Virus record (IMG/VR): IMGVR_UViG_3300027770_000029
Length of the DNA: 64,000 bases
Direction: 5' to 3' (one strand)
Source of the DNA: a virus
Below the pieces are notes generated by a model. That model searched no databases, was not told where the DNA came from, and was given only the letters and a program-made list of their open reading frames with translations. Position numbers and translations under genes: made by a program. Below are positions 3,248-24,168 of the stretch, in pieces (within the stretch, counting starts at the first letter, position 1; each line of letters starts with the position of its first letter).

Positions 3248-3296
3248 CGGTCCTGACCCCGTGGTATAACTGAATCATCAAGGAGGAAGGAACAAC

Positions 3297-3560
3297 ATGA
3301 ACGCCACCGACATCCAGATCGAGCTCCACGGTTTCCACTCGGACGTCTACAAGGAGGTCCACAACATCCGCCCCCGTTGGCTCCGCCCGGAGGACCGGAC
3401 GGCCGAGGAGTGGCAGGCGATGATCTCCCGCCTGATCGAGGAGGGTCAGGAGCTCGCCCGCAGGGAGCAGGAGGAGGCCGAGGCCCACGCGCGGTGGCAG
3501 GCCGAGGTGACGGCGTGCAAGCCCCTTCGGGTGCCCCTGGCGGCCTTCCTCCGGCTCTAG
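3297..3560 (+). CDS. Hypothetical phage protein (SDVYKEVHNIRPR motif)
   Basis: Own promoter and RBS; motif resembles a small protein I recall from large phages (not verified). Confidence 0.8.
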   Translation: MNATDIQIELHGFHSDVYKEVHNIRPRWLRPEDRTAEEWQAMISRLIEEGQELARREQEEAEAHARWQAEVTACKPLRVPLAAFLRL

Positions 3561-3615
3561 GAGCCCGTGCAACGCCGGCGACAGCCTGGTATAACTGAAT
3601 CATCAAGGAGGCAGC

Positions 3616-3804
3616 ATGCAGACGGAACGCATCGGCATCACCGAGCTCTTCGAGCGGGTCGAGGCCTTCAAGGCGGCGGACCCCCGCAACGGTGGAAGCA
3701 CCGACGAGATGGTCTCCCTCTACGTCGACGTCAGTGCAATCATCCGCGCGGCTGGCTGGGGGATCTGGGAGTACGAGGCTGCCCTCAGCTACGTGCCCGC
3801 GTAA
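3616..3804 (+). CDS. Small hypothetical early protein
   Basis: Own promoter and RBS; last cassette of the array. Confidence 0.8.
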   Translation: MQTERIGITELFERVEAFKAADPRNGGSTDEMVSLYVDVSAIIRAAGWGIWEYEAALSYVPA

Positions 3805-3809
3805 CCCCG

Positions 3810-4200
3810 GCAGGGGGCGGGGCCCCAAGGTTACAGTTACAGGTTACAGGGGCCCCAAATTGTCAGTGGGGGGCGGGCCCCATTGATATGTGACAGGGCC
3901 CCCCTAAATTAATGGGGCCCCCGCCCCCGGGGCCCCGGCCTACTCTGTGGGGGGTCCCCCGGCAGCGGCCGCCAAGCCCCTTCTCACAAAATTTTTCCGG
4001 AGAGTTTTTCCAAACAACCTATTCCCCCTGAGCGCTCGTGGCATGGAATCGCCGCCCCATTTTCCTGCGGAACTCACATTTCCCGAGGGCCCCGCCCACC
4101 CGAAAATTTTTCGGGAGATTTTTCGAGGATTTCGGGTCCCCCTGAGCGCCCGTAGCAGAGTTTTCCTCCAGAACCCCCGCGCGAAGCGCGGGGGCGTATA
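3810..4200. repeat. Non-coding junction: six GGGCCC palindromes, GTTACA x3, A/T tracts, CCCCTGAGCGC direct repeat
   Basis: GGGCCC cores near 3820, 3850, 3875, 3896, 3915, 3930; GTTACA at 3830, 3836, 3843; CCCCTGAGCGC at 4025 and 4139. Confidence 0.85.
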
Positions 4201-4204
4201 CTTA
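4198..4204 (+). promoter_or_regulatory. ATANTTA motif (putative phage late promoter), representative copy
   Basis: Exact copies shortly upstream of starts at 4198, 5720, 6252, 12241, 14686, 16125, 19602, 22547, 24594, 25501, 28179, 34061, 37760, 38700; on the - strand at 10914-10920 and 22207-22213. Confidence 0.6.
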
Positions 4205-4236
4205 ACCCCAGCTGGATGCAGCGAGGAGATTTTAGC

Positions 4237-12266: not shown

Positions 12267-13022
12267 GTGATTTGTGAGAACTGTTCAGCAGAACACTCGG
12301 GAAGCTATGGGAGTGGAAGATTTTGCAATTCCAAGTGTGCAAGAGGTTATTCTACAAAGACAAAGCGAGCTGAGATCAGCAAGAAAGTCTCAGCATCCAT
12401 TAGACGTGCCCATGGAACGGACTTGCTGACATGTCCGTCCTGTCAGTCCCAGTTCTCATGGGATCATTTTGCGACTGCAGCTGAAAAACTTGGCACAAAG
12501 GAAACTAAGTTTTGCAGCAAGACTTGCAAACGAGCAGCGAAAGATTCTCAAAATTGTTCTCCTGTTTTTCGACAGAAAATGTCAGATGCCGCGGTCAGGA
12601 GACTAGAGATGGGAGACGTTTGGTTTGGGAAGCAGAATCACATTGAAGCTTTCGGAAAGTCGATAAGGTGTGACTCTCTTCTTGAGAGAAGCTTTGTTCT
12701 AATGATGTCAAGAAACTCACTCATCAAAGATGTAAGAAGATCTGGCGTTTGGATTCCCTACGCGGATGACGAAATCAAGCGACAATACAATCCTGACTTT
12801 GTTGTTGAGTTTTCTGACGGGACTCTTGCAGTCGCTGAAGTCAAATCTGAAAGAATAGGAAAACGCGACGTCTGGGAAGATTACAGAAAGAAGTCAGAGA
12901 TCAAGCGCAGACTCCTTGAGGATTACGCAGCTTCCAACGACATGAAATTGATCTGGTACACTCAGAAAACTTCTCCACAAACTTATAAAGAAGTTTGTAA
13001 ATGCATTTCACCTGTAGTATAG
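12267..13022 (+). mobile_element. Free-standing endonuclease: Zn-ribbon N-terminus plus TnsA-N-like PD-(D/E)XK domain
   Basis: CENC...GSGRFCNSKC; YNPDFVV...AEVKSE; AAGGAG RBS inside a hairpin. Confidence 0.75.
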
Positions 13023-13061
13023 TATCAATGTGGTTGGAACAAACCAAGCACTCTTCGGAAC

Positions 13062-13138
13062 GTCCTCATACCGGCTTCGTTTCCTAAACGAAGTACCGTA
13101 ACTGGATTATGCTGGTTCGAGTCCAGCTGAGGACGCCA
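13062..13138 (+). tRNA. Atypical tRNA-Arg(CCT)-like RNA with no canonical D arm
   Basis: Acceptor GTCCTCA/TGAGGAC, G73, CCA; T arm GCTGG-TTCGAGT-CCAGC; stem CTTCGT/ACGAAG with loop TTCCTAA. Confidence 0.6.
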
Positions 13139-13142
13139 CTTT

Positions 13143-13237
13143 GAACATGGACGGCGGGTGTACAGTATCCCATGCAAATGGGGAGCACAGCTGGACCGGG
13201 ACTGATGACGCTGTACGGGCTCCGGGTCTCCATGTTC
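13143..13237 (+). ncRNA. Unidentified structured RNA
   Basis: Closing stem GAACATGGA/TCCATGTTC, inner GTACAG/CTGTAC, hairpin CCCAT-GCAA-ATGGG; lies between tRNAs. Confidence 0.5.
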
Positions 13238-13247
13238 TTTCTTCAAT

Positions 13248-13321
13248 GCTTCGCTGGCCTAGCGGTCGGGCAACTGCCTTCCAAGCAGTCTAGACCAGTT
13301 CAACTCTGGTGCGAAGCTCCA
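13248..13321 (+). tRNA. tRNA-Gly(TCC)
   Basis: Full cloverleaf, loop CTTCCAA, encoded CCA. Confidence 0.9.
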
Positions 13322-13337
13322 CTTCAAAACTCAATAT

Positions 13338-13609
13338 GCCCGATTAGCTCAGTTGGTTAGAGCAACGGACTGTCAAATGGCAGCTTTGGTGGGTAACCAC
13401 CATCGAAAAGATCGTAAATTCGGTGAACTCCCTGTCGAAAGACGAGACAACGCCGAGCCAAGCCCGAAAGGGAAGGTGTAGAGACTGTAATCGATCCATC
13501 CCACCGGGATGATGGCACAGTCCAGACCACGAACGGTGAGAACCGGCGATGAAAATCGAAGTGGCACGTAATCCGTGGGTCCCCTGTTCAAGTCAGGGAT
13601 CGGGCGCCA
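13338..13609 (+). tRNA. tRNA-Asn(GTT) split by a group I intron (exons 13338-13373 and 13569-13609)
   Basis: Joining exons gives ACGGA-CTGTTAA-TCCGT, G73, CCA. Confidence 0.9.
13374..13568 (+). mobile_element. ORF-less group I intron (195 nt) at anticodon position 35/36
   Basis: P AAATTCGGTGAA, Q AACGCCGAGC, R GTGTAGAGACT, S GCACAGTCC; terminal G; 5' exon ends in U. Confidence 0.88.
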
Positions 13610-13615
13610 TATCAA

Positions 13616-13707
13616 TGAGACCGAGCCTGGCGGGCACACCCGACGGGGTGCAGGTTGGTTCAATTCCAACGGGGTCAAACGTGGTTCGAATCCACGCGGT
13701 CTCATCA
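13616..13707 (+). ncRNA. tRNA-like RNA with two T-arm-like hairpins
   Basis: Outer stem TGAGACCG/CGGTCTCA; GTTGG-TTCAATT-CCAAC and CGTGG-TTCGAAT-CCACG. Confidence 0.55.
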
Positions 13708-13709
13708 CT

Positions 13710-13823
13710 TTCCCACCCCAGACCGCCGGATAACCGGCACCACTCGCAACCAGTGGTATCTGCGTTAGCACGGTCAGAAAGTTTGAGGCTTCAGTCTCAT
13801 TCGCGCAGATTAAGGGGTGGGAA
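13710..13823 (+). ncRNA. Unidentified multibranch structured RNA
   Basis: 10-bp closing stem TTCCCACCCC/GGGGTGGGAA; hairpins GCCGG-ATAA-CCGGC and ACCACT..AGTGGT; ATCTGCG/CGCAGAT. Confidence 0.55.
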
Positions 13824-13847
13824 TTAACAAACAACAGCGGAGACAAA

Positions 13848-14153
13848 ATGATTTACGAAATCGTGATCGTTGCCGACACAAACGATGCTGACTACGTCAC
13901 AAAGATAAGTGACATTACTCCTGGCGAACTCGAACGATTTACACCTCTGATTGCAGAGATTGCAAAAGTCAAGCACTACAATTGGGACACTTCGGCGTAT
14001 GGAGATGATGAAGACAAGCCAGAGATCATGTATTCTCAGTTTGCCGAGCTGGTGGAGGAATTTGGGGAGTTTGTCCCGCACGGCGAACACGGTGTTCACA
14101 CCATCAAGTCTATTGTTTATTACGAAAAGCCCACAAAGATTGTTCTTCTTTAA
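13848..14153 (+). CDS. Hypothetical protein
   Basis: GGAGA RBS, 101 aa. Confidence 0.8.
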   Translation: MIYEIVIVADTNDADYVTKISDITPGELERFTPLIAEIAKVKHYNWDTSAYGDDEDKPEIMYSQFAELVEEFGEFVPHGEHGVHTIKSIVYYEKPTKIVLL

Positions 14154-14162
14154 ATAAAAACC

Positions 14163-14191
14163 ATGCAAACCGCCCGCGGGCATGTTATAAT
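14163..14191 (+). promoter_or_regulatory. Promoter ATGCAA-N17-TATAAT upstream of tRNA-Ile
   Basis: Extended TG, 17-nt spacer. Confidence 0.75.
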
Positions 14192-14258
14192 AAGAACATA
14201 AGCTGGATCGGATCGGACGCCACTAAGAATCTGCTCATTAGATGACCACTACCATTAT

Positions 14259-14334
14259 AGGCGGGTAGCTCAGCGGTCAGAGCAGGTGGCTTATATCCAC
14301 CCGGTCGTGGGTTCAATCCCCACCCCGCCTACCA
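14259..14334 (+). tRNA. tRNA-Ile(TAT)
   Basis: Cloverleaf, GGTGG-CTTATAT-CCACC, A73, CCA. Confidence 0.9.
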
Positions 14335-14342
14335 ATGCCAAT

Positions 14343-14443
14343 GATCGTAAGGCCTGATTCCATTAGATGGGTTCTCCTGAATTAACAGGGCAATACTATG
14401 ATCCAGCTAATGGAATCCGATCTGACACTCTGGAAAGACAGAG
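14343..14443 (+). ncRNA. Unidentified structured RNA
   Basis: GATCG/CGATC, 11-bp GATTCCATTAG/CTAATGGAATC, CCTG-AATTAA-CAGG, then CTCTG-GAAAGA-CAGAG. Confidence 0.45.
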
Positions 14444-14451
14444 AACTTCTT

Positions 14452-14528
14452 CTCACCATAGCTCAGCTGGATAGAGCAGCAGCCTTCTAAGCTGCGGGTC
14501 ATTGGTTCGAATCCAATTGGTGAGGCCA
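14452..14528 (+). tRNA. tRNA-Arg(TCT)
   Basis: Full cloverleaf, CCA. Confidence 0.93.
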
Positions 14529-14625
14529 TTTCGTTGAAGGTTTACGATGAAACTTCTATCAGTAATTTACCAGCTTGTGAGAGCGATTCACCGCGCTCTG
14601 AGGTGCTTCGGAAAGTCAAAGTAGA

Positions 14626-14646
14626 GGGGGCGTAGCTCAGCTGGGA
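14626..14646 (+). pseudogene. 5' fragment of a canonical tRNA-Ala
   Basis: GGGGGCGTAGCTCAGCTGGGA stops abruptly at the end of the D loop, followed by the AT-rich HNH leader. Confidence 0.7.
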
Positions 14647-14697
14647 AAACTTCAAATTTGATTGCAATTTATTTGCTCTCCCAGAATAATTAGGTTT

Positions 14698-15273
14698 ATG
14701 TGGACATGCAAACATTGCAAGAATAATTTTGAGTTTGATTCTTTGTCTGATAAAGCTAATCACTCTAGATGGTGCGAAAAAAATCCAAAAAAAGAAAACA
14801 CTGAGAGCTTAAAACTCGCGCAGTCACTTTCAGTAGAAAAAAGACTTGGGCCGATTCAAGAATTTGAAGTCTTTTGCGAGACTTGCTCCAAACTCTTTAT
14901 GATTAAAGAGAGAGCAAAGAAATTTCCGTCTAAAGAAAAATACTTTTGCTCAAGAAGCTGCGCAAATTCTTTAGGCGGAAAAGCAAAATCAGAAAAATAC
15001 AGGATCAATGAACCGAAGCATTACGTAGCTATTGCGTGGAAATACCATGATAAAGTTTGCTGCGTTTGCGACGAAAATAAGATTGTAGCTGTTCATCATT
15101 GTGATGAGAATCACGACAATAATGATCCAAAAAATCTAGTTCCTCTTTGTCCAACTCATCATCAGTACATGCATAGCAGATACAAAATCGAAATACAAGA
15201 TAAAGTTCAGAAATACATCAATGATAAATGGGCTGTAAGTGTTGTCGGGGGCACACGGGCTTTGCAAGCCTGA
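14698..15273 (+). mobile_element. HNH homing endonuclease (free-standing)
   Basis: Zn ribbons; CCVC...VHH...NHDNN...LVPLCPTHH; AT-rich. Confidence 0.85.
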
Positions 15274-15304
15274 AGGACCGGTTCGATTCCGGTACGGTCC
15301 ACCA
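15230..15304 (+). tRNA. tRNA-Ala(TGC), divergent, overlapping the HNH 3' end
   Basis: GGGCTGT/ACGGTCC with G3:U70, loop TTTGCAA, CCA. Confidence 0.88.
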
Positions 15305-15342
15305 TTCAACAATCGCACGAGAGTGCACAATCAAGGAGAAAA

Positions 15343-15651
15343 ATGCGTAACTTCACGATCTCTGCTTTTGCAGTCGCAGCTCTGGCCCTTGCTGGCTGCC
15401 ATCATGACGATGACAAGGACGACGACACTGTTACCTGCCCTCAGGATACTGCTGGTCAGGACACTGCCGTGACCGATCCGGTTGACACCGCGGACACCAG
15501 CGGTGGCGATACTGCCGATACTTCGACTCCGCAGGATACGGCGTCCCAGGATACCGGGGCTGACACTGGTGCTGGTAGCGACACCGGCGCAACTGATACT
15601 GGCGCTTCCAGCGACACTGGTTCCGGCGGCACCGACACCTCGGCTCCCTAA
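15343..15651 (+). CDS. Lipoprotein with Asp/Thr/Gly-rich low-complexity tail
   Basis: Signal peptide with LAGC lipobox; DTG/DTA repeats. Confidence 0.85.
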   Translation: MRNFTISAFAVAALALAGCHHDDDKDDDTVTCPQDTAGQDTAVTDPVDTADTSGGDTADTSTPQDTASQDTGADTGAGSDTGATDTGASSDTGSGGTDTSAP

Positions 15652-15659
15652 CAGATTTT

Positions 15660-15751
15660 GGGAGAGCTGCTAGGGCGGTGGTCTAGCGACGAGCTGTAAA
15701 CCCGTTCCCTCAGGGCAAACACTGTCAGTTCGAATCTGACCTCTCCCACCA
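15660..15751 (+). tRNA. tRNA-Tyr(GTA)
   Basis: Long variable arm, loop CTGTAAA, CCA; one A.C mismatch in the anticodon stem. Confidence 0.85.
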
Positions 15752-15755
15752 TCGA

Positions 15756-15832
15756 AGGACTATAGCTCAGTTGGTTAGAGCTAGCGTTTCATACACACTC
15801 GGTCACTTGTTCGAATCAAGTTAGTGCCACCA
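15756..15832 (+). tRNA. tRNA with CAT anticodon (Met or Ile2), degenerate
   Basis: Canonical D and T arms and CCA; mismatches at 1:72 and 3:70 and one in the anticodon stem. Confidence 0.6.
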
Positions 15833-15833
15833 T

Positions 15834-15908
<75 letters not shown>

Positions 15909-15912
15909 CATT

Positions 15913-15989
<77 letters not shown>

Positions 15990-15995
15990 CATGAC

Positions 15996-16079
15996 GCGCG
16001 GATGGTGGAATGGTATACACGCAGGTCTTAGAAGCCTGTGCCTGACGGCTTGAGGGTTCAAGTCCCTCTTCGCGCACCA
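15996..16079 (+). tRNA. tRNA-Leu(TAG)
   Basis: Type II cloverleaf, CCA. Confidence 0.93.
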
Positions 16080-16146
16080 CCTATAAAATTAGAAAGTTGA
16101 TTAACCTGAATCAATCGTATGAGTATATTTAGAACCGAGGGTTCGA

Positions 16147-16929
16147 ATGTTTTCATGCGACTGTGAGTTTTTGACAGATTCTCTTAGAACTTTAAGGAGT
16201 CATTACGCAGCAAATCACGGCAGCGGAATCTCTTTCTTTGAAAAGTTCGATGACGTAATCACTTCCAATTGGGAAGATTTCCCACAAAGAGCGATTCGCT
16301 CGTTCTTACTTTGGAAGTCAAATTACAAATGCACGTCATGTGGATACGAAAAAACACGAGAGTGCGGTGCTTCGATACTTGAAGTTGATCACATCGATGG
16401 AAATCATGATAATAACTCTTTAAGTAACCTTCGCATTCTTTGCCCAAACTGTCACGCTCTAACTCCAAAATATCGAAATTGGTCGAACAAAGGAAACGAA
16501 AAGCATGCTTCATCACTAAGACCGGGTAATGCTGGTTATAATGAAAGGCACAAGACCCAAGAAGCGAAGAGATTTGAACGACAACTCAAAATTGAAACGA
16601 AGAAAGCTCAGACGACTGAGATAAAACGTGATAAGAAGAAAGTTTTTCGAGAGTTTGAAAAAACTAAGATTAACTTTCAGGAAAGGTTTATTCAAAAAGT
16701 GAATGAGCTTCATCAATCTAAAGAGATTGACTTTTCAAAGTATGGATGGGTTCAGTTATTAGCTGAACGTTGTAATGAACATCCACAAGTCGTCGGTCGT
16801 AGAGTTCGCTCACTAATGCCTGATTTTTATCTTGAACATTGCTTCAGCAGAAGATATAATCATTACATCAAGAATATGGAGAGCATCCGGCCAGATGAGG
16901 AAACAGCCTTGAAAACTGTCGCGGGTTAA
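16147..16929 (+). mobile_element. HNH homing endonuclease (free-standing)
   Basis: CTSCG...LEVDHIDGNHDNN...LRILCPNCH. Confidence 0.88.
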
Positions 16930-16966
16930 GAGCCCGTTGTGGGTGCGAGTCCCACGCTCTCCGCCA
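16878..16966 (+). tRNA. tRNA-Ser(TGA), overlapping the last 52 nt of the HNH ORF
   Basis: GGAGAGC/GCTCTCC, G73, long variable arm, CCA. Confidence 0.88.
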
Positions 16967-16970
16967 TCTT

Positions 16971-17044
16971 GCCCCCTTAATTTAATGGTAAAATACCTGT
17001 TTTGTAATCAGGCTTTGTTGGTTCGATTCCGACAGGGGGCACCA
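16971..17044 (+). tRNA. tRNA-Thr(TGT)
   Basis: Cloverleaf, CCA. Confidence 0.9.
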
Positions 17045-17048
17045 CACG

Positions 17049-17080
17049 GCCGGCATCTAATAATAGATGCCGGCTTTTTT
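17049..17080 (+). terminator. Rho-independent terminator
   Basis: GCCGGCATCTA-ATAA-TAGATGCCGGC followed by T6. Confidence 0.85.
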
Positions 17081-17114
17081 GATGATAGCAATCAACAACA
17101 AAGGAACAATCAAC

Positions 17115-17462
17115 ATGAAGCTCGCTAATGTCCTACTTCTTCTTCCTCTCCTCACCCTTGCAGCATGCGGCGGAGATGATGACAAGACCAGCACCGTTGA
17201 TACCGCAGCTTGCGGTGAGGGTGATACCAGCTCGGTCGATACTGCTGTGACTGTCACCTGCACCGACGCCACGGGCACCTACGACGTCGGCGCCACGTGG
17301 ACCTGCGAGGATGGCTGCAACTCCTGCTCTTGCCAGGAGGATGGAACGGTCGCTCAGACCGAGATGGCGTGCCCTGATACCGGTGACACGGGCGGTGAGG
17401 TTCCCCCTGACACTGGCTCCTCTGATACGGGTTCCTCTACCGACACCTCCACCGAGGGTTGA
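17115..17462 (+). CDS. Lipoprotein with pacifastin/VWC-like Cys module and DTG repeats
   Basis: LAAC lipobox; CEDGCNSCSC...ACP. Confidence 0.85.
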   Translation: MKLANVLLLLPLLTLAACGGDDDKTSTVDTAACGEGDTSSVDTAVTVTCTDATGTYDVGATWTCEDGCNSCSCQEDGTVAQTEMACPDTGDTGGEVPPDTGSSDTGSSTDTSTEG

Positions 17463-17466
17463 TAAA

Positions 17467-18456
17467 ATGATCGCGATTCTTTCCCTGCTCATCGCATGCT
17501 CCGATGCCAGCAACGTTGCGGAGCCCGTAAATCCGCAGATCACGGATGCTGTCACGGTTGATCGTACTAAGCTTGGAGCGTTCCAGCCGCTCCCGGAAAA
17601 CTTCTTCATTGCGGGAGCGGAGCCTTCTCCTGATCTGATCTTTCTCGGTCGCCGTCTCTTCTTTGAGACCCAGCTCTCGGCCGACGCCAACATGTCATGC
17701 TCCACCTGTCATAATGTTGCGAAGGACGGCGCTGATGAGCATAAGTTCTCCCCGGGTCACAAGATGACGCCGGCAGGTCGTAACTCTCCGACGGTCTTCA
17801 ACGCAGCAGGACAGGCTTCCCAGTTTTGGGACGGTCGAGCAAAGACGGTCGAGGAGCAGGCACTCGGTCCTATCCTCGCTGCGGGTGAGATGGCGATGCC
17901 GGATGCCGAGACCGTTGCCCGCGTCCTCAAGGAGGATCCCACCTACGTTGTTGAGTTCGCGAAGGCATTCCCGGGTGAGAAGGATCCCCTCACTTTTGAG
18001 AACGTCGGTGTCGCCATCGGTGCCTACGAGCGAACGCTGGTCACACCCTCCAGGTGGGACGCTTTCCTCCAGGGTGACGATGCCGCTCTCACCAACGACG
18101 AGAAGCGGGGCCTCAATACCTTCATGGAGGTCGGTTGCACGGCATGTCATAACGGCACTCTTCTCGGTGGTGCGTCTTTCATGAAGCTCGGTGCTGTGGA
18201 GCCTTGGCCCAACCAGGCAGACCAGGGGCGATTCGGAGTGACGGGACAGGAAACCGATCGGATGGTCTTCAAGGTGTCTTCCCTTCGCAATTCCACTGAG
18301 ACGGCACCCTACTTCCACGATGCATCTTCCGAGAGCCTGGGCGCAGCCGTCTACATGATGGGAAAGCACCAGCTTGGTAAGTCTCTCACCCCTGAGCAGG
18401 TGACTGATATTGTGAGCTTTCTCGGGTCCACAAAGGGAAATCCAGCTTCCTTCTGA
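17467..18456 (+). CDS. ccp: Di-haem cytochrome c peroxidase (CCP/MauG family), probably a lipoprotein
   Basis: CSTCH and CTACH haem motifs, RNSPTVFNA, QFWDGRA, FKVSSLRN. Confidence 0.93.
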   Translation: MIAILSLLIACSDASNVAEPVNPQITDAVTVDRTKLGAFQPLPENFFIAGAEPSPDLIFLGRRLFFETQLSADANMSCSTCHNVAKDGADEHKFSPGHKMTPAGRNSPTVFNAAGQASQFWDGRAKTVEEQALGPILAAGEMAMPDAETVARVLKEDPTYVVEFAKAFPGEKDPLTFENVGVAIGAYERTLVTPSRWDAFLQGDDAALTNDEKRGLNTFMEVGCTACHNGTLLGGASFMKLGAVEPWPNQADQGRFGVTGQETDRMVFKVSSLRNSTETAPYFHDASSESLGAAVYMMGKHQLGKSLTPEQVTDIVSFLGSTKGNPASF

Positions 18457-23218: not shown

Positions 23219-23899
23219 ATGTTCGAATGCGAAAATTGCTCAATCTCTCATGATGCCTCGTATGGAAGCGGAAGATTCTGCAGCGCAAAATGTTCGAGGT
23301 CATTTTCGACTAGATCGAAGAGAAAAGAGATAAATGAAAAAGTCTCAAAGTCTTTGTCTGGTAGAGAATGTCCCAAAGATTTTGAGTGTGATGGGTGCGG
23401 TAAAAAATTCGGTTCGAAGATGGCTCTGATAGGGCACAAGTCAAATTGCGATAAAAATGATGCAAAGCTTGAACGCGAAAGATATAATCAAAACAGATTG
23501 GAAGTCAAGCTAAATGCTTCATTTGAAGAACTTTCAATCATCTTGAAAAGAGAAAAAATTTTCCGTGAACAATCTGGTAAATGTAACCATTGCGGATTAG
23601 AAAACTGGCTCGGACAAAAAATAACTCTAGAGCTTGAACATCGCGATGGAAACACAAATAATAATGACAGATCGAACCTAGAGCTTCTTTGCCCAAATTG
23701 CCATTCTCTAACTCACACGTGGAGAGGCAGAAATAAAAGCAAAAGTAACTCTAGAAAAAGAGTGAGTGATGAAGATCTTTCAGAAGCACTAAAAAGCAGC
23801 TTGTCAATTCGTCAGGCGCTGATTAAAGTTGGTTTAGCTCCTAAAGGTGCAAACTACTTCAGAGCGAAAAAGTTAAAAGAAAATTTAACGGGCCTTTAG
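23219..23899 (+). mobile_element. HNH homing endonuclease with N-terminal Zn ribbon
   Basis: CENC..GSGRFCSAKC; LELEHRDGN..NN..LELLCPNCH; stop codon lies inside tRNA-Lys. Confidence 0.88.
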
Positions 23900-24168
23900 C
23901 TCAACTGGCAGAGCAAGGGACTTTCAATGGAAGCTTCAGGGAGAAATCTCTGTCGAACACAGCCCAAATTCGGGGAACTCTTAACAGGTAATGCTGATGA
24001 CAATCCCGAGCGAAGCCCGAAAGGGAACGTGTAGAGACTAGAGGGGCTGCACCCTAACGAGAAAGACGAGGGTGATGGTATAGTCCAGACCACGAACTGC
24101 AAAGGCGACGAAAGTCGAAGTGGTATGTAATCCCAAGGTTGTGGGTTCGATTCCCACAGGGCCCACCA
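23890..24168 (+). tRNA. tRNA-Lys(TTT) split by a group I intron (exons 23890-23924 and 24128-24168)
   Basis: Joined loop CTTTTAA, A73, CCA. Confidence 0.9.
23925..24127 (+). mobile_element. ORF-less group I intron (203 nt) at anticodon position 35/36
   Basis: AAATTCGGGGAA, AATCCCGAGC, GTGTAGAGACT, GGTATAGTCC; terminal G. Confidence 0.88.

Follow-up and report, generated by a model that had tools for sequence, protein, structure and literature searches.

Integrase-driven islands and prophages integrate into transfer RNA (tRNA) genes and replace the 3' part that they displace. Homing endonuclease genes, to our knowledge, are thought to persist in essential genes only by means of self-splicing introns or inteins, or else beside their targets. 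In phages T4 and T6, the free-standing endonuclease SegB is encoded in a tRNA cluster and cuts tRNA genes of phages that lack SegB (PMC2330249; PMC13096335), and in the so-called fractured genes, a homing endonuclease gene splits a host gene whose function is restored by split inteins (PMC2677866). Here we analyzed positions 14626 to 15304 of a viral DNA stretch of 64,000 nucleotides (nt) (IMG/VR record IMGVR_UViG_3300027770_000029), the whole of which we refer to as the window. In this block, a 5' piece of a tRNA-Ala gene is followed by an HNH nuclease gene and by a complete tRNA-Ala. We estimate a probability of roughly 0.7 that the block is one mobile module of a large family residing in the tRNA arrays of aquatic phages and that it acts by the mechanism proposed below, in which a tRNA gene is broken and replaced. 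The features of the block are as follows.

14626..14646, + strand: dead 5' stub of a canonical tRNA-Ala, covering tRNA positions 1-21 (acceptor 5' strand, D-stem 5' strand, D loop)
14647..14697, + strand: leader of 51 nt, recognized by comparison with the leaders of relatives
14698..15273, + strand: free-standing HNH endonuclease gene encoding 191 amino acids (aa), predicted from homologues, PHROG 7545 and invariant residues
15230..15304, + strand: complete tRNA-Ala(UGC), here called type I, identified by ARAGORN as tRNA-Ala(tgc) and by Rfam at 46.9 bits against a gathering score of 29

The original prediction, made from the sequence alone, had named the stub cut off at the D loop, the HNH gene, the complete tRNA-Ala(TGC) with its G3:U70 pair and an overlap of 14 codons of the open reading frame (ORF) between the last two; the presence of all these parts was confirmed.

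A filled and an empty tRNA-Ala site

For comparison we used loci of relatives, designated by L-numbers. In total, 69 distinct relatives were examined, 34 of which aligned with the window nuclease over the full length and 35 over the middle and HNH part only. One of the loci was L034, whose HNH protein is 46% identical to that of the window over the full length. At positions 1419-2115 of this locus, the 5' part (1-36) and the 3' part (37-76) of a tRNA-Ala flank a 621-nt insert, which lies after the anticodon and consists of a leader, the HNH gene and a complete tRNA-Ala. Directly 3' of the complete tRNA, we found AAATTAGGAGTT followed by a T arm and AGGGTCC-A-CCA. This 3' strand pairs at 7 of 7 positions with the acceptor strand of the L034 stub, and the two halves, when joined in silico, fold as a tRNA. 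Furthermore, two other viral contigs, L174 (6267-6342) and L180, have an intact tRNA-Ala to which the joined halves are identical over positions 1-26 and 48-76, and synteny extends downstream, where L034 and L174/L180 all have a tRNA-Gly(gcc) and then a homologous gene. Since L034 retains both halves and its syntenic allele is intact, the insert sits in a resident tRNA-Ala; judged by this comparison, the HNH gene and its tRNA were inserted into the anticodon loop of that gene, after position 36. The L034/L174 pair is the best sequence evidence in the family for a "break and replace" event.

Recurrence of the arrangement in the family

Among the 34 full-length relatives, 25 end in or at a tRNA-Ala (24 UGC and 1 GGC), 2 at a tRNA-Pro and 7 at no tRNA, and the overlap between ORF and tRNA-Ala in the 25 ranges from 8 to 101 nt. 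The 35 relatives that share the middle and HNH part have another N terminus, and 17 of them lie in the same manner on tRNA-Pro, Asn, Lys, Val or Trp. As a different N terminus goes with a different tRNA, the N-terminal region appears to track tRNA identity, which would fit a DNA-recognition module aimed at tRNA genes. The junction always places Lys-Trp codons over tRNA positions 1-2, and the protein tail KWAVSVVGGTRALQA is conserved while overall identity is only 55 to 60%, because this tail is tRNA sequence. A different nuclease-like ORF with the same N-terminal CKHC...HSRWCEKNPKK finger was seen in L001 (5988-6694), an AT-rich viral contig, where it ends within the 5' end of a tRNA-Arg(tct).

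Dead 5' halves recur as well. A 5' tRNA-Ala piece scored far above shuffled sequences in 9 of 31 distinct leaders, and with the further 5' tRNA-Ala halves of the closer relatives L133/L134 and L136, the total reaches at least 11 relatives. These halves all begin 68 to 82 nt upstream of the ATG and mostly end at tRNA positions 35-38, in the anticodon loop, and their acceptor sequences are all different. The stub often differs in type from the tRNA downstream of the HNH gene: type I is followed by type II in L036 and L038, and type II-like by type I in L131. After the stub, the relatives show the same order of elements, namely, a TTGCAAT-like box, a T4 late-promoter box (TATAAATA), a CTCC...GGAG hairpin over the ribosome-binding site (RBS) and the ATG; in the window, these boxes are degenerate. 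T4 endonuclease genes are known to have such a layout of late-promoter box and RBS hairpin (PMC2988022). When mapped on the HNH tree, tRNA type shows clustering, with 18 changes versus 23.8 in shuffles and 0 of 200 shuffles as low. Comparison across loci shows both the recurrence of the arrangement and the placement of the module boundaries at tRNA ends.

As a separate observation, L131 (2000-2085) and L132 carry, directly after the HNH-linked tRNA-Ala, a tRNA-Met remnant that comprises the 3' two-thirds of the gene, with the anticodon arm, the T arm, the 3' strand of the acceptor and the CCA.

The window block as a module in two contexts

A blastn comparison of the window with L002 gave homology over 14625-15304, which is exactly from stub position 1 to the CCA of the tRNA. 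The flanks are unrelated (upstream, z score of 1.4; downstream, a score under the shuffled mean), and the position of the block relative to the shared Val-Pro-Leu genes also differs, since in L002 it lies on the opposite side of tRNA-Met. The presence of the same block in two contexts indicates that stub, HNH and tRNA behave as one module.

The stub GGGGGCGTAGCTCAGCTGGGA (21 nt) is unique in the window, and a match at no more than 3 mismatches was obtained in 0 of 100 shuffles. A 25-mer that extends it, with R/Y at two places, occurs at 108 IMG/VR loci and represents tRNA-Ala positions 1-25 in about 106 of the 108. L204 harbors a shortened copy of the same 25-mer. A homologous stub lies in the same place in L002/L003, with 19 of 21 bases identical. 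In the window, the GAGC expected after A21 of the stub is absent, and a search of the window for a 3' partner of the stub found none. The window copy is an inherited and partly decayed one, with 21 well-kept bases of the 5' half and no 3' half.

The leader following the stub contains a TTGCAAT box, a degenerate version of the late-promoter box TATAAATA of the relatives, a CTCC element and a weak RBS (TAGG), elements whose function we infer; a weak sigma-70-like match lies at 14662-14690. The segment 14647-14668 (AAACTTCAAATTTGA...) is probably the decayed remainder of the 5' half, down to the anticodon loop, and because of this appearance the original break was probably at the anticodon loop rather than at the D loop. 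The fragment had initially been described as cut at the D loop, and the well-kept stub does end there, whereas the leaders of the relatives point to the anticodon loop as the probable site of the break. We also considered GCTCTCCCAG in the leader, which is complementary to the D loop, as a meaningful stem, and we dropped this proposal; the segment aligns with the ACTCC arm of the relatives' RBS hairpin.

The nuclease gene

The longest ORF opens at TTG 14662. Because the homologues, of which there are more than 500 in metagenomes with lengths of 175 to 192 aa, all begin with MW.CKHC, ATG 14698 is taken as the true start. The protein has an N-terminal CxxC...HxxxC finger, an FCS-like zinc finger in the middle and a C-terminal HNH domain, and C121, C124, H133, H134, N142, N146, C151, H154, H155 and H159 are invariant in 28 sequences. 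It matches PHROG 7545, "HNH endonuclease" (E value, 1.2e-7), and Pfam HNH_2 at an E value of 0.0015 and 18.7 bits, under the 21-bit cut-off. The AlphaFold model has a mean confidence (predicted local distance difference test, pLDDT) of 84.5 and is less confident in the linker and in the disordered, tRNA-coded tail (residues 181-191). The top rows of a Foldseek search were HNH nucleases (McrA, Gme HNH, Cap5, PacI, Cas9 HNH and T5 SciA), all of them weak matches with E values of 0.0075 or higher, and a sequence search of the PDB with the nuclease gave no match. The ratio of nonsynonymous to synonymous substitution rates (dN/dS) between the window HNH and its L002 relative, 69% identical, is 0.12. 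Together with the invariant catalytic and zinc residues and a model that is confident except in the tail, this ratio makes the nuclease gene look functional, and DNA cleavage is predicted. Its G+C content of 36 to 38%, versus about 50% around it, represents a foreign base composition. The 14 tRNA-coded residues at the C terminus look like a by-product of fusion at tRNA position 1 and not like a functional domain.

The carried tRNA-Ala

The tRNA at 15230-15304 is the sole tRNA-Ala in the 64-kb window. Its acceptor stem (GGGCTGT/ACGGTCC) pairs at 7 of 7 positions including G3:U70, the discriminator is A73, CCA is encoded, and the type I D arm (AAGTGTTGTCGGGGGCAC) is unusual in having A8 and U14. 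The ORF ends with ...KWAVSVVGGTRALQA and the stop TGA at 15271-15273, so that 44 nt of the tRNA lie within the ORF and tRNA positions 1-44 form its last 14 codons and stop. Among 6 type I relatives, compensatory changes were found at 11 of 24 pairs, and G3:U70 was present in 6 of 6. In view of this covariation, the carried tRNA clearly appears to be under selection as a tRNA and looks functional.

The type I D-arm signature was found in 15 IMG/VR tRNA-Ala genes, none of which has an HNH gene upstream and none of which lies at a locus with the stub, and of the 43 loci with the type II signature, 34 lack an HNH gene. The canonical TAGCTCA D arm is present in only 5 of the 69 distinct phage tRNA-Ala genes at the relatives' loci. 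Judged by these counts, the "divergent" tRNA-Ala is an ordinary phage lineage, and the idea that it is a special, cleavage-resistant derivative is not supported. As to HNH-free loci with both this tRNA and the same fragment, which the original prediction had named as speaking against it, the tRNA type is present in the 15 loci and the stub in none. The HNH-free loci also show that a phage can lose the HNH portion lying 5' of tRNA position 1 and still retain an intact tRNA, contrary to the view that the element is undeletable. What the phage cannot spare would be the tRNA, not the nuclease.

A proposed break-and-replace model

We propose that the module consists of a dead 5' tRNA-Ala piece, a free-standing HNH homing endonuclease gene and a complete tRNA-Ala(UGC) that starts inside the last codons of the latter. 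The nuclease would recognize tRNA-Ala DNA and cut or nick it in phages without the module, and repair of the break would copy the module in, at a site that in the relatives is the anticodon loop after position 36. The invaded gene would remain as an upstream 5' half and sometimes also as a downstream 3' half, while the tRNA-Ala of the module, with its intact and covarying cloverleaf, would keep the phage supplied. The distribution is of the homing type, since the HNH gene is absent at the syntenic site in L137, L138, L140 and L143 and the site is uninterrupted in L174/L180.

It is possible, though on the doubtful side, that the stub is kept because it is functional and not a mere scar. It could serve as a portable homology arm, in which case the cassette, with the stub at its left end and the 3' half of the carried tRNA at its right end, could home into any tRNA-Ala gene in any genome context; this would make the module a context-independent gene drive on an RNA gene. 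Alternatively, it could be an operator for autorepression, with the TTGCAAT box, which is anticodon-loop-like and near the promoter, as the site at which the nuclease would repress itself. I-TevI is known to repress its own gene at a look-alike of its homing site (PMC2988022). If the stub is functional, the differing stub acceptors would record successive hosts. More speculatively, the RNase P cut at the 5' end of the tRNA might remove the stop codon from the nuclease mRNA.

Evidence against the model and alternative explanations

Several points weigh against the break-and-replace model. The relatives of the window locus, which we traced via a neighboring 101-aa gene, include L137, L138, L140 and L143, the nearest syntenic ones, in which tRNA-Ile and tRNA-Arg are shared with the window, as is the spacer over its first 65 nt (z scores of 12 to 15). 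They then run directly to tRNA-Pro and have neither a tRNA-Ala nor an HNH gene there, so that the intact canonical tRNA-Ala that the original prediction expected in relatives at this locus was not encountered, and no HNH-free allele of the window phage's own locus was found among the syntenic relatives. Because the block is shared with L002 and the syntenic relatives lack a tRNA-Ala, the window stub appears to have been inherited with the module, and a break at this locus is not demonstrable from the comparison. The proposal that the element breaks a tRNA-Ala and brings a replacement is supported at the level of the family, by L034 and the recurrent halves, but not at the window locus.

The histories of the parts also differ. 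Identities and distances between the window and L002 are as follows.

Carried tRNA-Ala (window 15230-15304 versus L002 3250-3324): 75/75 identical, also in L003
HNH part: 70% identity, dS (synonymous divergence) of about 2
Other shared tRNAs: 78 to 86% identity

A tRNA identical at 75 of 75 positions next to an HNH part identical at 70% implies that the two do not have one shared history. This suggests that the tRNA segment alone was exchanged more recently than the adjoining nuclease, and it weakens any strict view of the cassette as a unit with a single history. Between phages, the boundaries of exchange are known to be marked by nuclease genes (PMC10448857). In addition, the resolution of the HNH tree is poor, and several switches of tRNA type occur along it. 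Finally, the target of the nuclease, its cut site and the immunity of the carried tRNA are properties that we infer from sequence.

The alternative that survives best, which we nevertheless regard as unlikely, holds that the downstream tRNA-Ala is a resident gene and that the mobile unit is made of stub, leader and HNH, inserting precisely at position -1/+1 of a tRNA-Ala and replacing nothing, the stub having been carried along from an earlier host. With types I and II so common without HNH (15 type I loci and 34 of 43 type II loci), the downstream tRNA could in principle be such a resident gene, and the constant junction at the K-W codons over tRNA positions 1-2 is in agreement with insertion next to it. 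The contrast of 100% identity in the tRNA and 70% in the HNH between the window and L002 would likewise fit two HNH alleles beside one resident tRNA. However, the complete tRNA of L034 sits between the two halves of the invaded gene and hence belongs to the insert. Moreover, the syntenic relatives have no tRNA-Ala at this site, L138 having a different, canonical one elsewhere in its array, and downstream of the tRNA, the window and L002 have unrelated flanks.

L138 deserves a description of its own. At 3261-4211, a 269-aa nuclease ORF overlaps the canonical tRNA-Ala by 10 nt; the N-terminal half of its product resembles the window HNH (36% identity), and the C-terminal nuclease part is different. 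About 55 nt downstream lies a 3' tRNA scrap, TTCGATCCCGTTCGCCTCCACC, whose acceptor strand would pair with the GGGGGCG of the window stub. This match between scrap and stub is short and no more than suggestive.

A second alternative is that the 21-mer is unrelated debris and the HNH gene an ordinary SegB-like free-standing endonuclease gene lying by chance between a fragment and a tRNA. The window stub is indeed just 21 nt long and without a 3' partner, and scraps occur elsewhere in such arrays, also from tRNAs of other identity, as seen in the tRNA-Met 3' two-thirds of L131/L132, the 3' tRNA-Ala scrap of L138 and the truncated 25-mer of L204. Chance would, however, have to account for stubs of the same amino-acid identity that lie equally far from the ATG in no fewer than 11 independent relatives, for the filled and empty sites of L034 and L174 and for the coincidence of the stub with the left edge of the block common to L002, and we consider this explanation quite improbable.

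The last alternative, in which the HNH gene lies inside an intron of a split tRNA-Ala whose 5' exon is the stub and splicing restores the tRNA, is scarcely credible and is refuted for the window locus by the sequence: two tRNAs of the same window do carry group I introns, which lie in the anticodon loop, where tRNA introns usually occur and where the relatives have the break, but the stub acceptor GGGGGCG and the downstream 3' strand ACGGTCC pair at only 3 of 7 positions and hence do not belong to two exons, the D-stem halves of stub and downstream tRNA do not match, Rfam gave no intron match at 14647-15229 at E values up to 1 (two RF00028 matches lie elsewhere in the window), the interval is filled by the ORF, and the downstream tRNA is complete by itself. 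The original description of the element as intron-free stands, with no ribozyme detected and with stub and downstream tRNA that do not fit together. Nor did we find the marks of an integrase-type island targeting a tRNA, as the HNH gene is the only ORF in the block and the leftover is a 5' piece, not a 3' one.

The surrounding tRNA array and its origin

The window is part of a large freshwater phage. The sequencing runs that contain matching DNA are freshwater metagenomes, the phage proteins encoded in the window include a helicase and PhoH, and the product of the neighboring gene is also encoded on contigs of up to 181 kb. The tRNA array spans 13.2 to 24.4 kb and contains 14 tRNAs according to ARAGORN, with nuclease genes of low G+C content scattered through it. 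A search of phage GenBank sequences with 13800-16200 returned generic tRNA matches only. Exact scans gave no match for a 30-mer from the 3' end of the tRNA in viral contigs and none for a 48-mer of the neighboring tRNA-Val in viral and metagenome contigs. When contigs of four freshwater runs were compared with 13000-17500, the same arrangement was recovered piecemeal, and no joint lacking the HNH gene was observed, which, as contigs only were covered, is no evidence of absence. The joints listed from these contigs were rejected as tRNA cross-matches, with sides of 20 to 24 nt on tRNA sequence.

Two tRNA genes of the array are interrupted. At 13338-13609, the anticodon loop of a tRNA-Asn(GTT) not called by ARAGORN contains a group I intron that spans about 195 nt (roughly 13375-13568) and is matched by Rfam RF00028 at 13362-13540 with 32.9 bits, under the gathering score. 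The other interrupted gene is a tRNA-Lys(UUU) at 23890-24168, whose group I intron scores 56.6 bits with Rfam (23913-24109). A second HNH ORF of low G+C content (23219-23899) ends on this intron-bearing tRNA-Lys, its TAG being tRNA-Lys positions 8-10, and so displays the same overlap of ORF and tRNA. A third HNH ORF (16147-16929; Pfam HNH, E value of 9.5e-5) extends 53 nt into a tRNA-Ser(UGA)-like gene at 16877-16964, which ARAGORN missed and which matches the Rfam tRNA-Sec model with 35.3 bits. In the same region (16133-16964), a T-loop-like GGTTCGAAT box overlaps the ATG of this third ORF.

Two further elements were noted. At 13618-13706 lies a tRNA-like element with an acceptor-like stem (GAGACCG/CGGTCTC) and a T arm, uncalled by ARAGORN, whose sole Rfam match is a weak one of the mascRNA type (23 bits). 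Just upstream of tRNA-Gly, a 251-aa ORF (12267-13022) encodes a TnsA-like endonuclease N-terminal domain (Pfam E value of 1.3e-4, below the cut-off) together with several zinc ribbons; it is a fourth nuclease-like gene in the array.

Significance and comparison with known systems

Taken alone, the window holds a worn copy, and the weight of the finding rests on the family. If the model is correct, such cassettes would represent a third route for homing endonuclease genes to persist, open to RNA genes: insertion into a gene, killing of that gene and supply of a working substitute. The odd tRNA halves and near-duplicate tRNAs of phage tRNA arrays could be accounted for in this way, as could the shuffling and exchange of tRNA genes between unrelated phages. 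Phage tRNAs have been described as counter-measures to host defenses that cut tRNAs (PMC13096335), and tRNA exchange would bear on this role. The arrangement would also be a natural "cut and replace" design and a possible tool.

Our literature search found SegB and reviews, and no description of a cassette of nuclease and spare tRNA or of a break-and-replace event. Likewise, we found no published description of an intron-less invasion of an RNA gene by an element bringing its own working copy, and SegB is the closest known system. Both concern a free-standing endonuclease gene in a phage tRNA array, and SegB recognizes tRNA gene DNA of phages lacking it and drives the preferential inheritance of neighboring tRNA genes. 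The relatives of the window HNH also resemble segB in having a T4-type late promoter and an RBS hairpin upstream (PMC2988022). However, SegB is a GIY-YIG enzyme that lies between intact tRNA genes and recognizes a T-loop motif of many tRNAs, and no split target, stub or overlap of ORF and tRNA has been reported for it. The family described here has an HNH nuclease, is associated with a single tRNA identity and lies within the gene that it invades, accompanied by a spare tRNA.

Endonucleases of group I introns, including those of the introns in the tRNA-Asn and tRNA-Lys of the window, are similar in that the insertion point in the relatives is the anticodon loop of a tRNA, that a homing endonuclease ORF fills the insert and that the host retains tRNA function. 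Here, by contrast, function would be retained at the DNA level through a second complete gene copy, with no splicing and no ribozyme, and the invaded gene is dead. Integrase-driven islands share with our module a tRNA gene as the target, the restoration of a working tRNA and a partial tRNA duplicate at the other end. They use tyrosine or serine integrases and attachment (att) sites and duplicate the 3' segment only, whereas in the module, where the only gene is that of the HNH nuclease, the tRNA is carried whole and what is left over is the 5' half. Fractured genes, finally, resemble it in that a free-standing endonuclease gene splits an essential gene and that the cost is offset without a conventional intron or intein. 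Their halves work through protein trans-splicing, while here the halves would be abandoned and a spare gene supplied.

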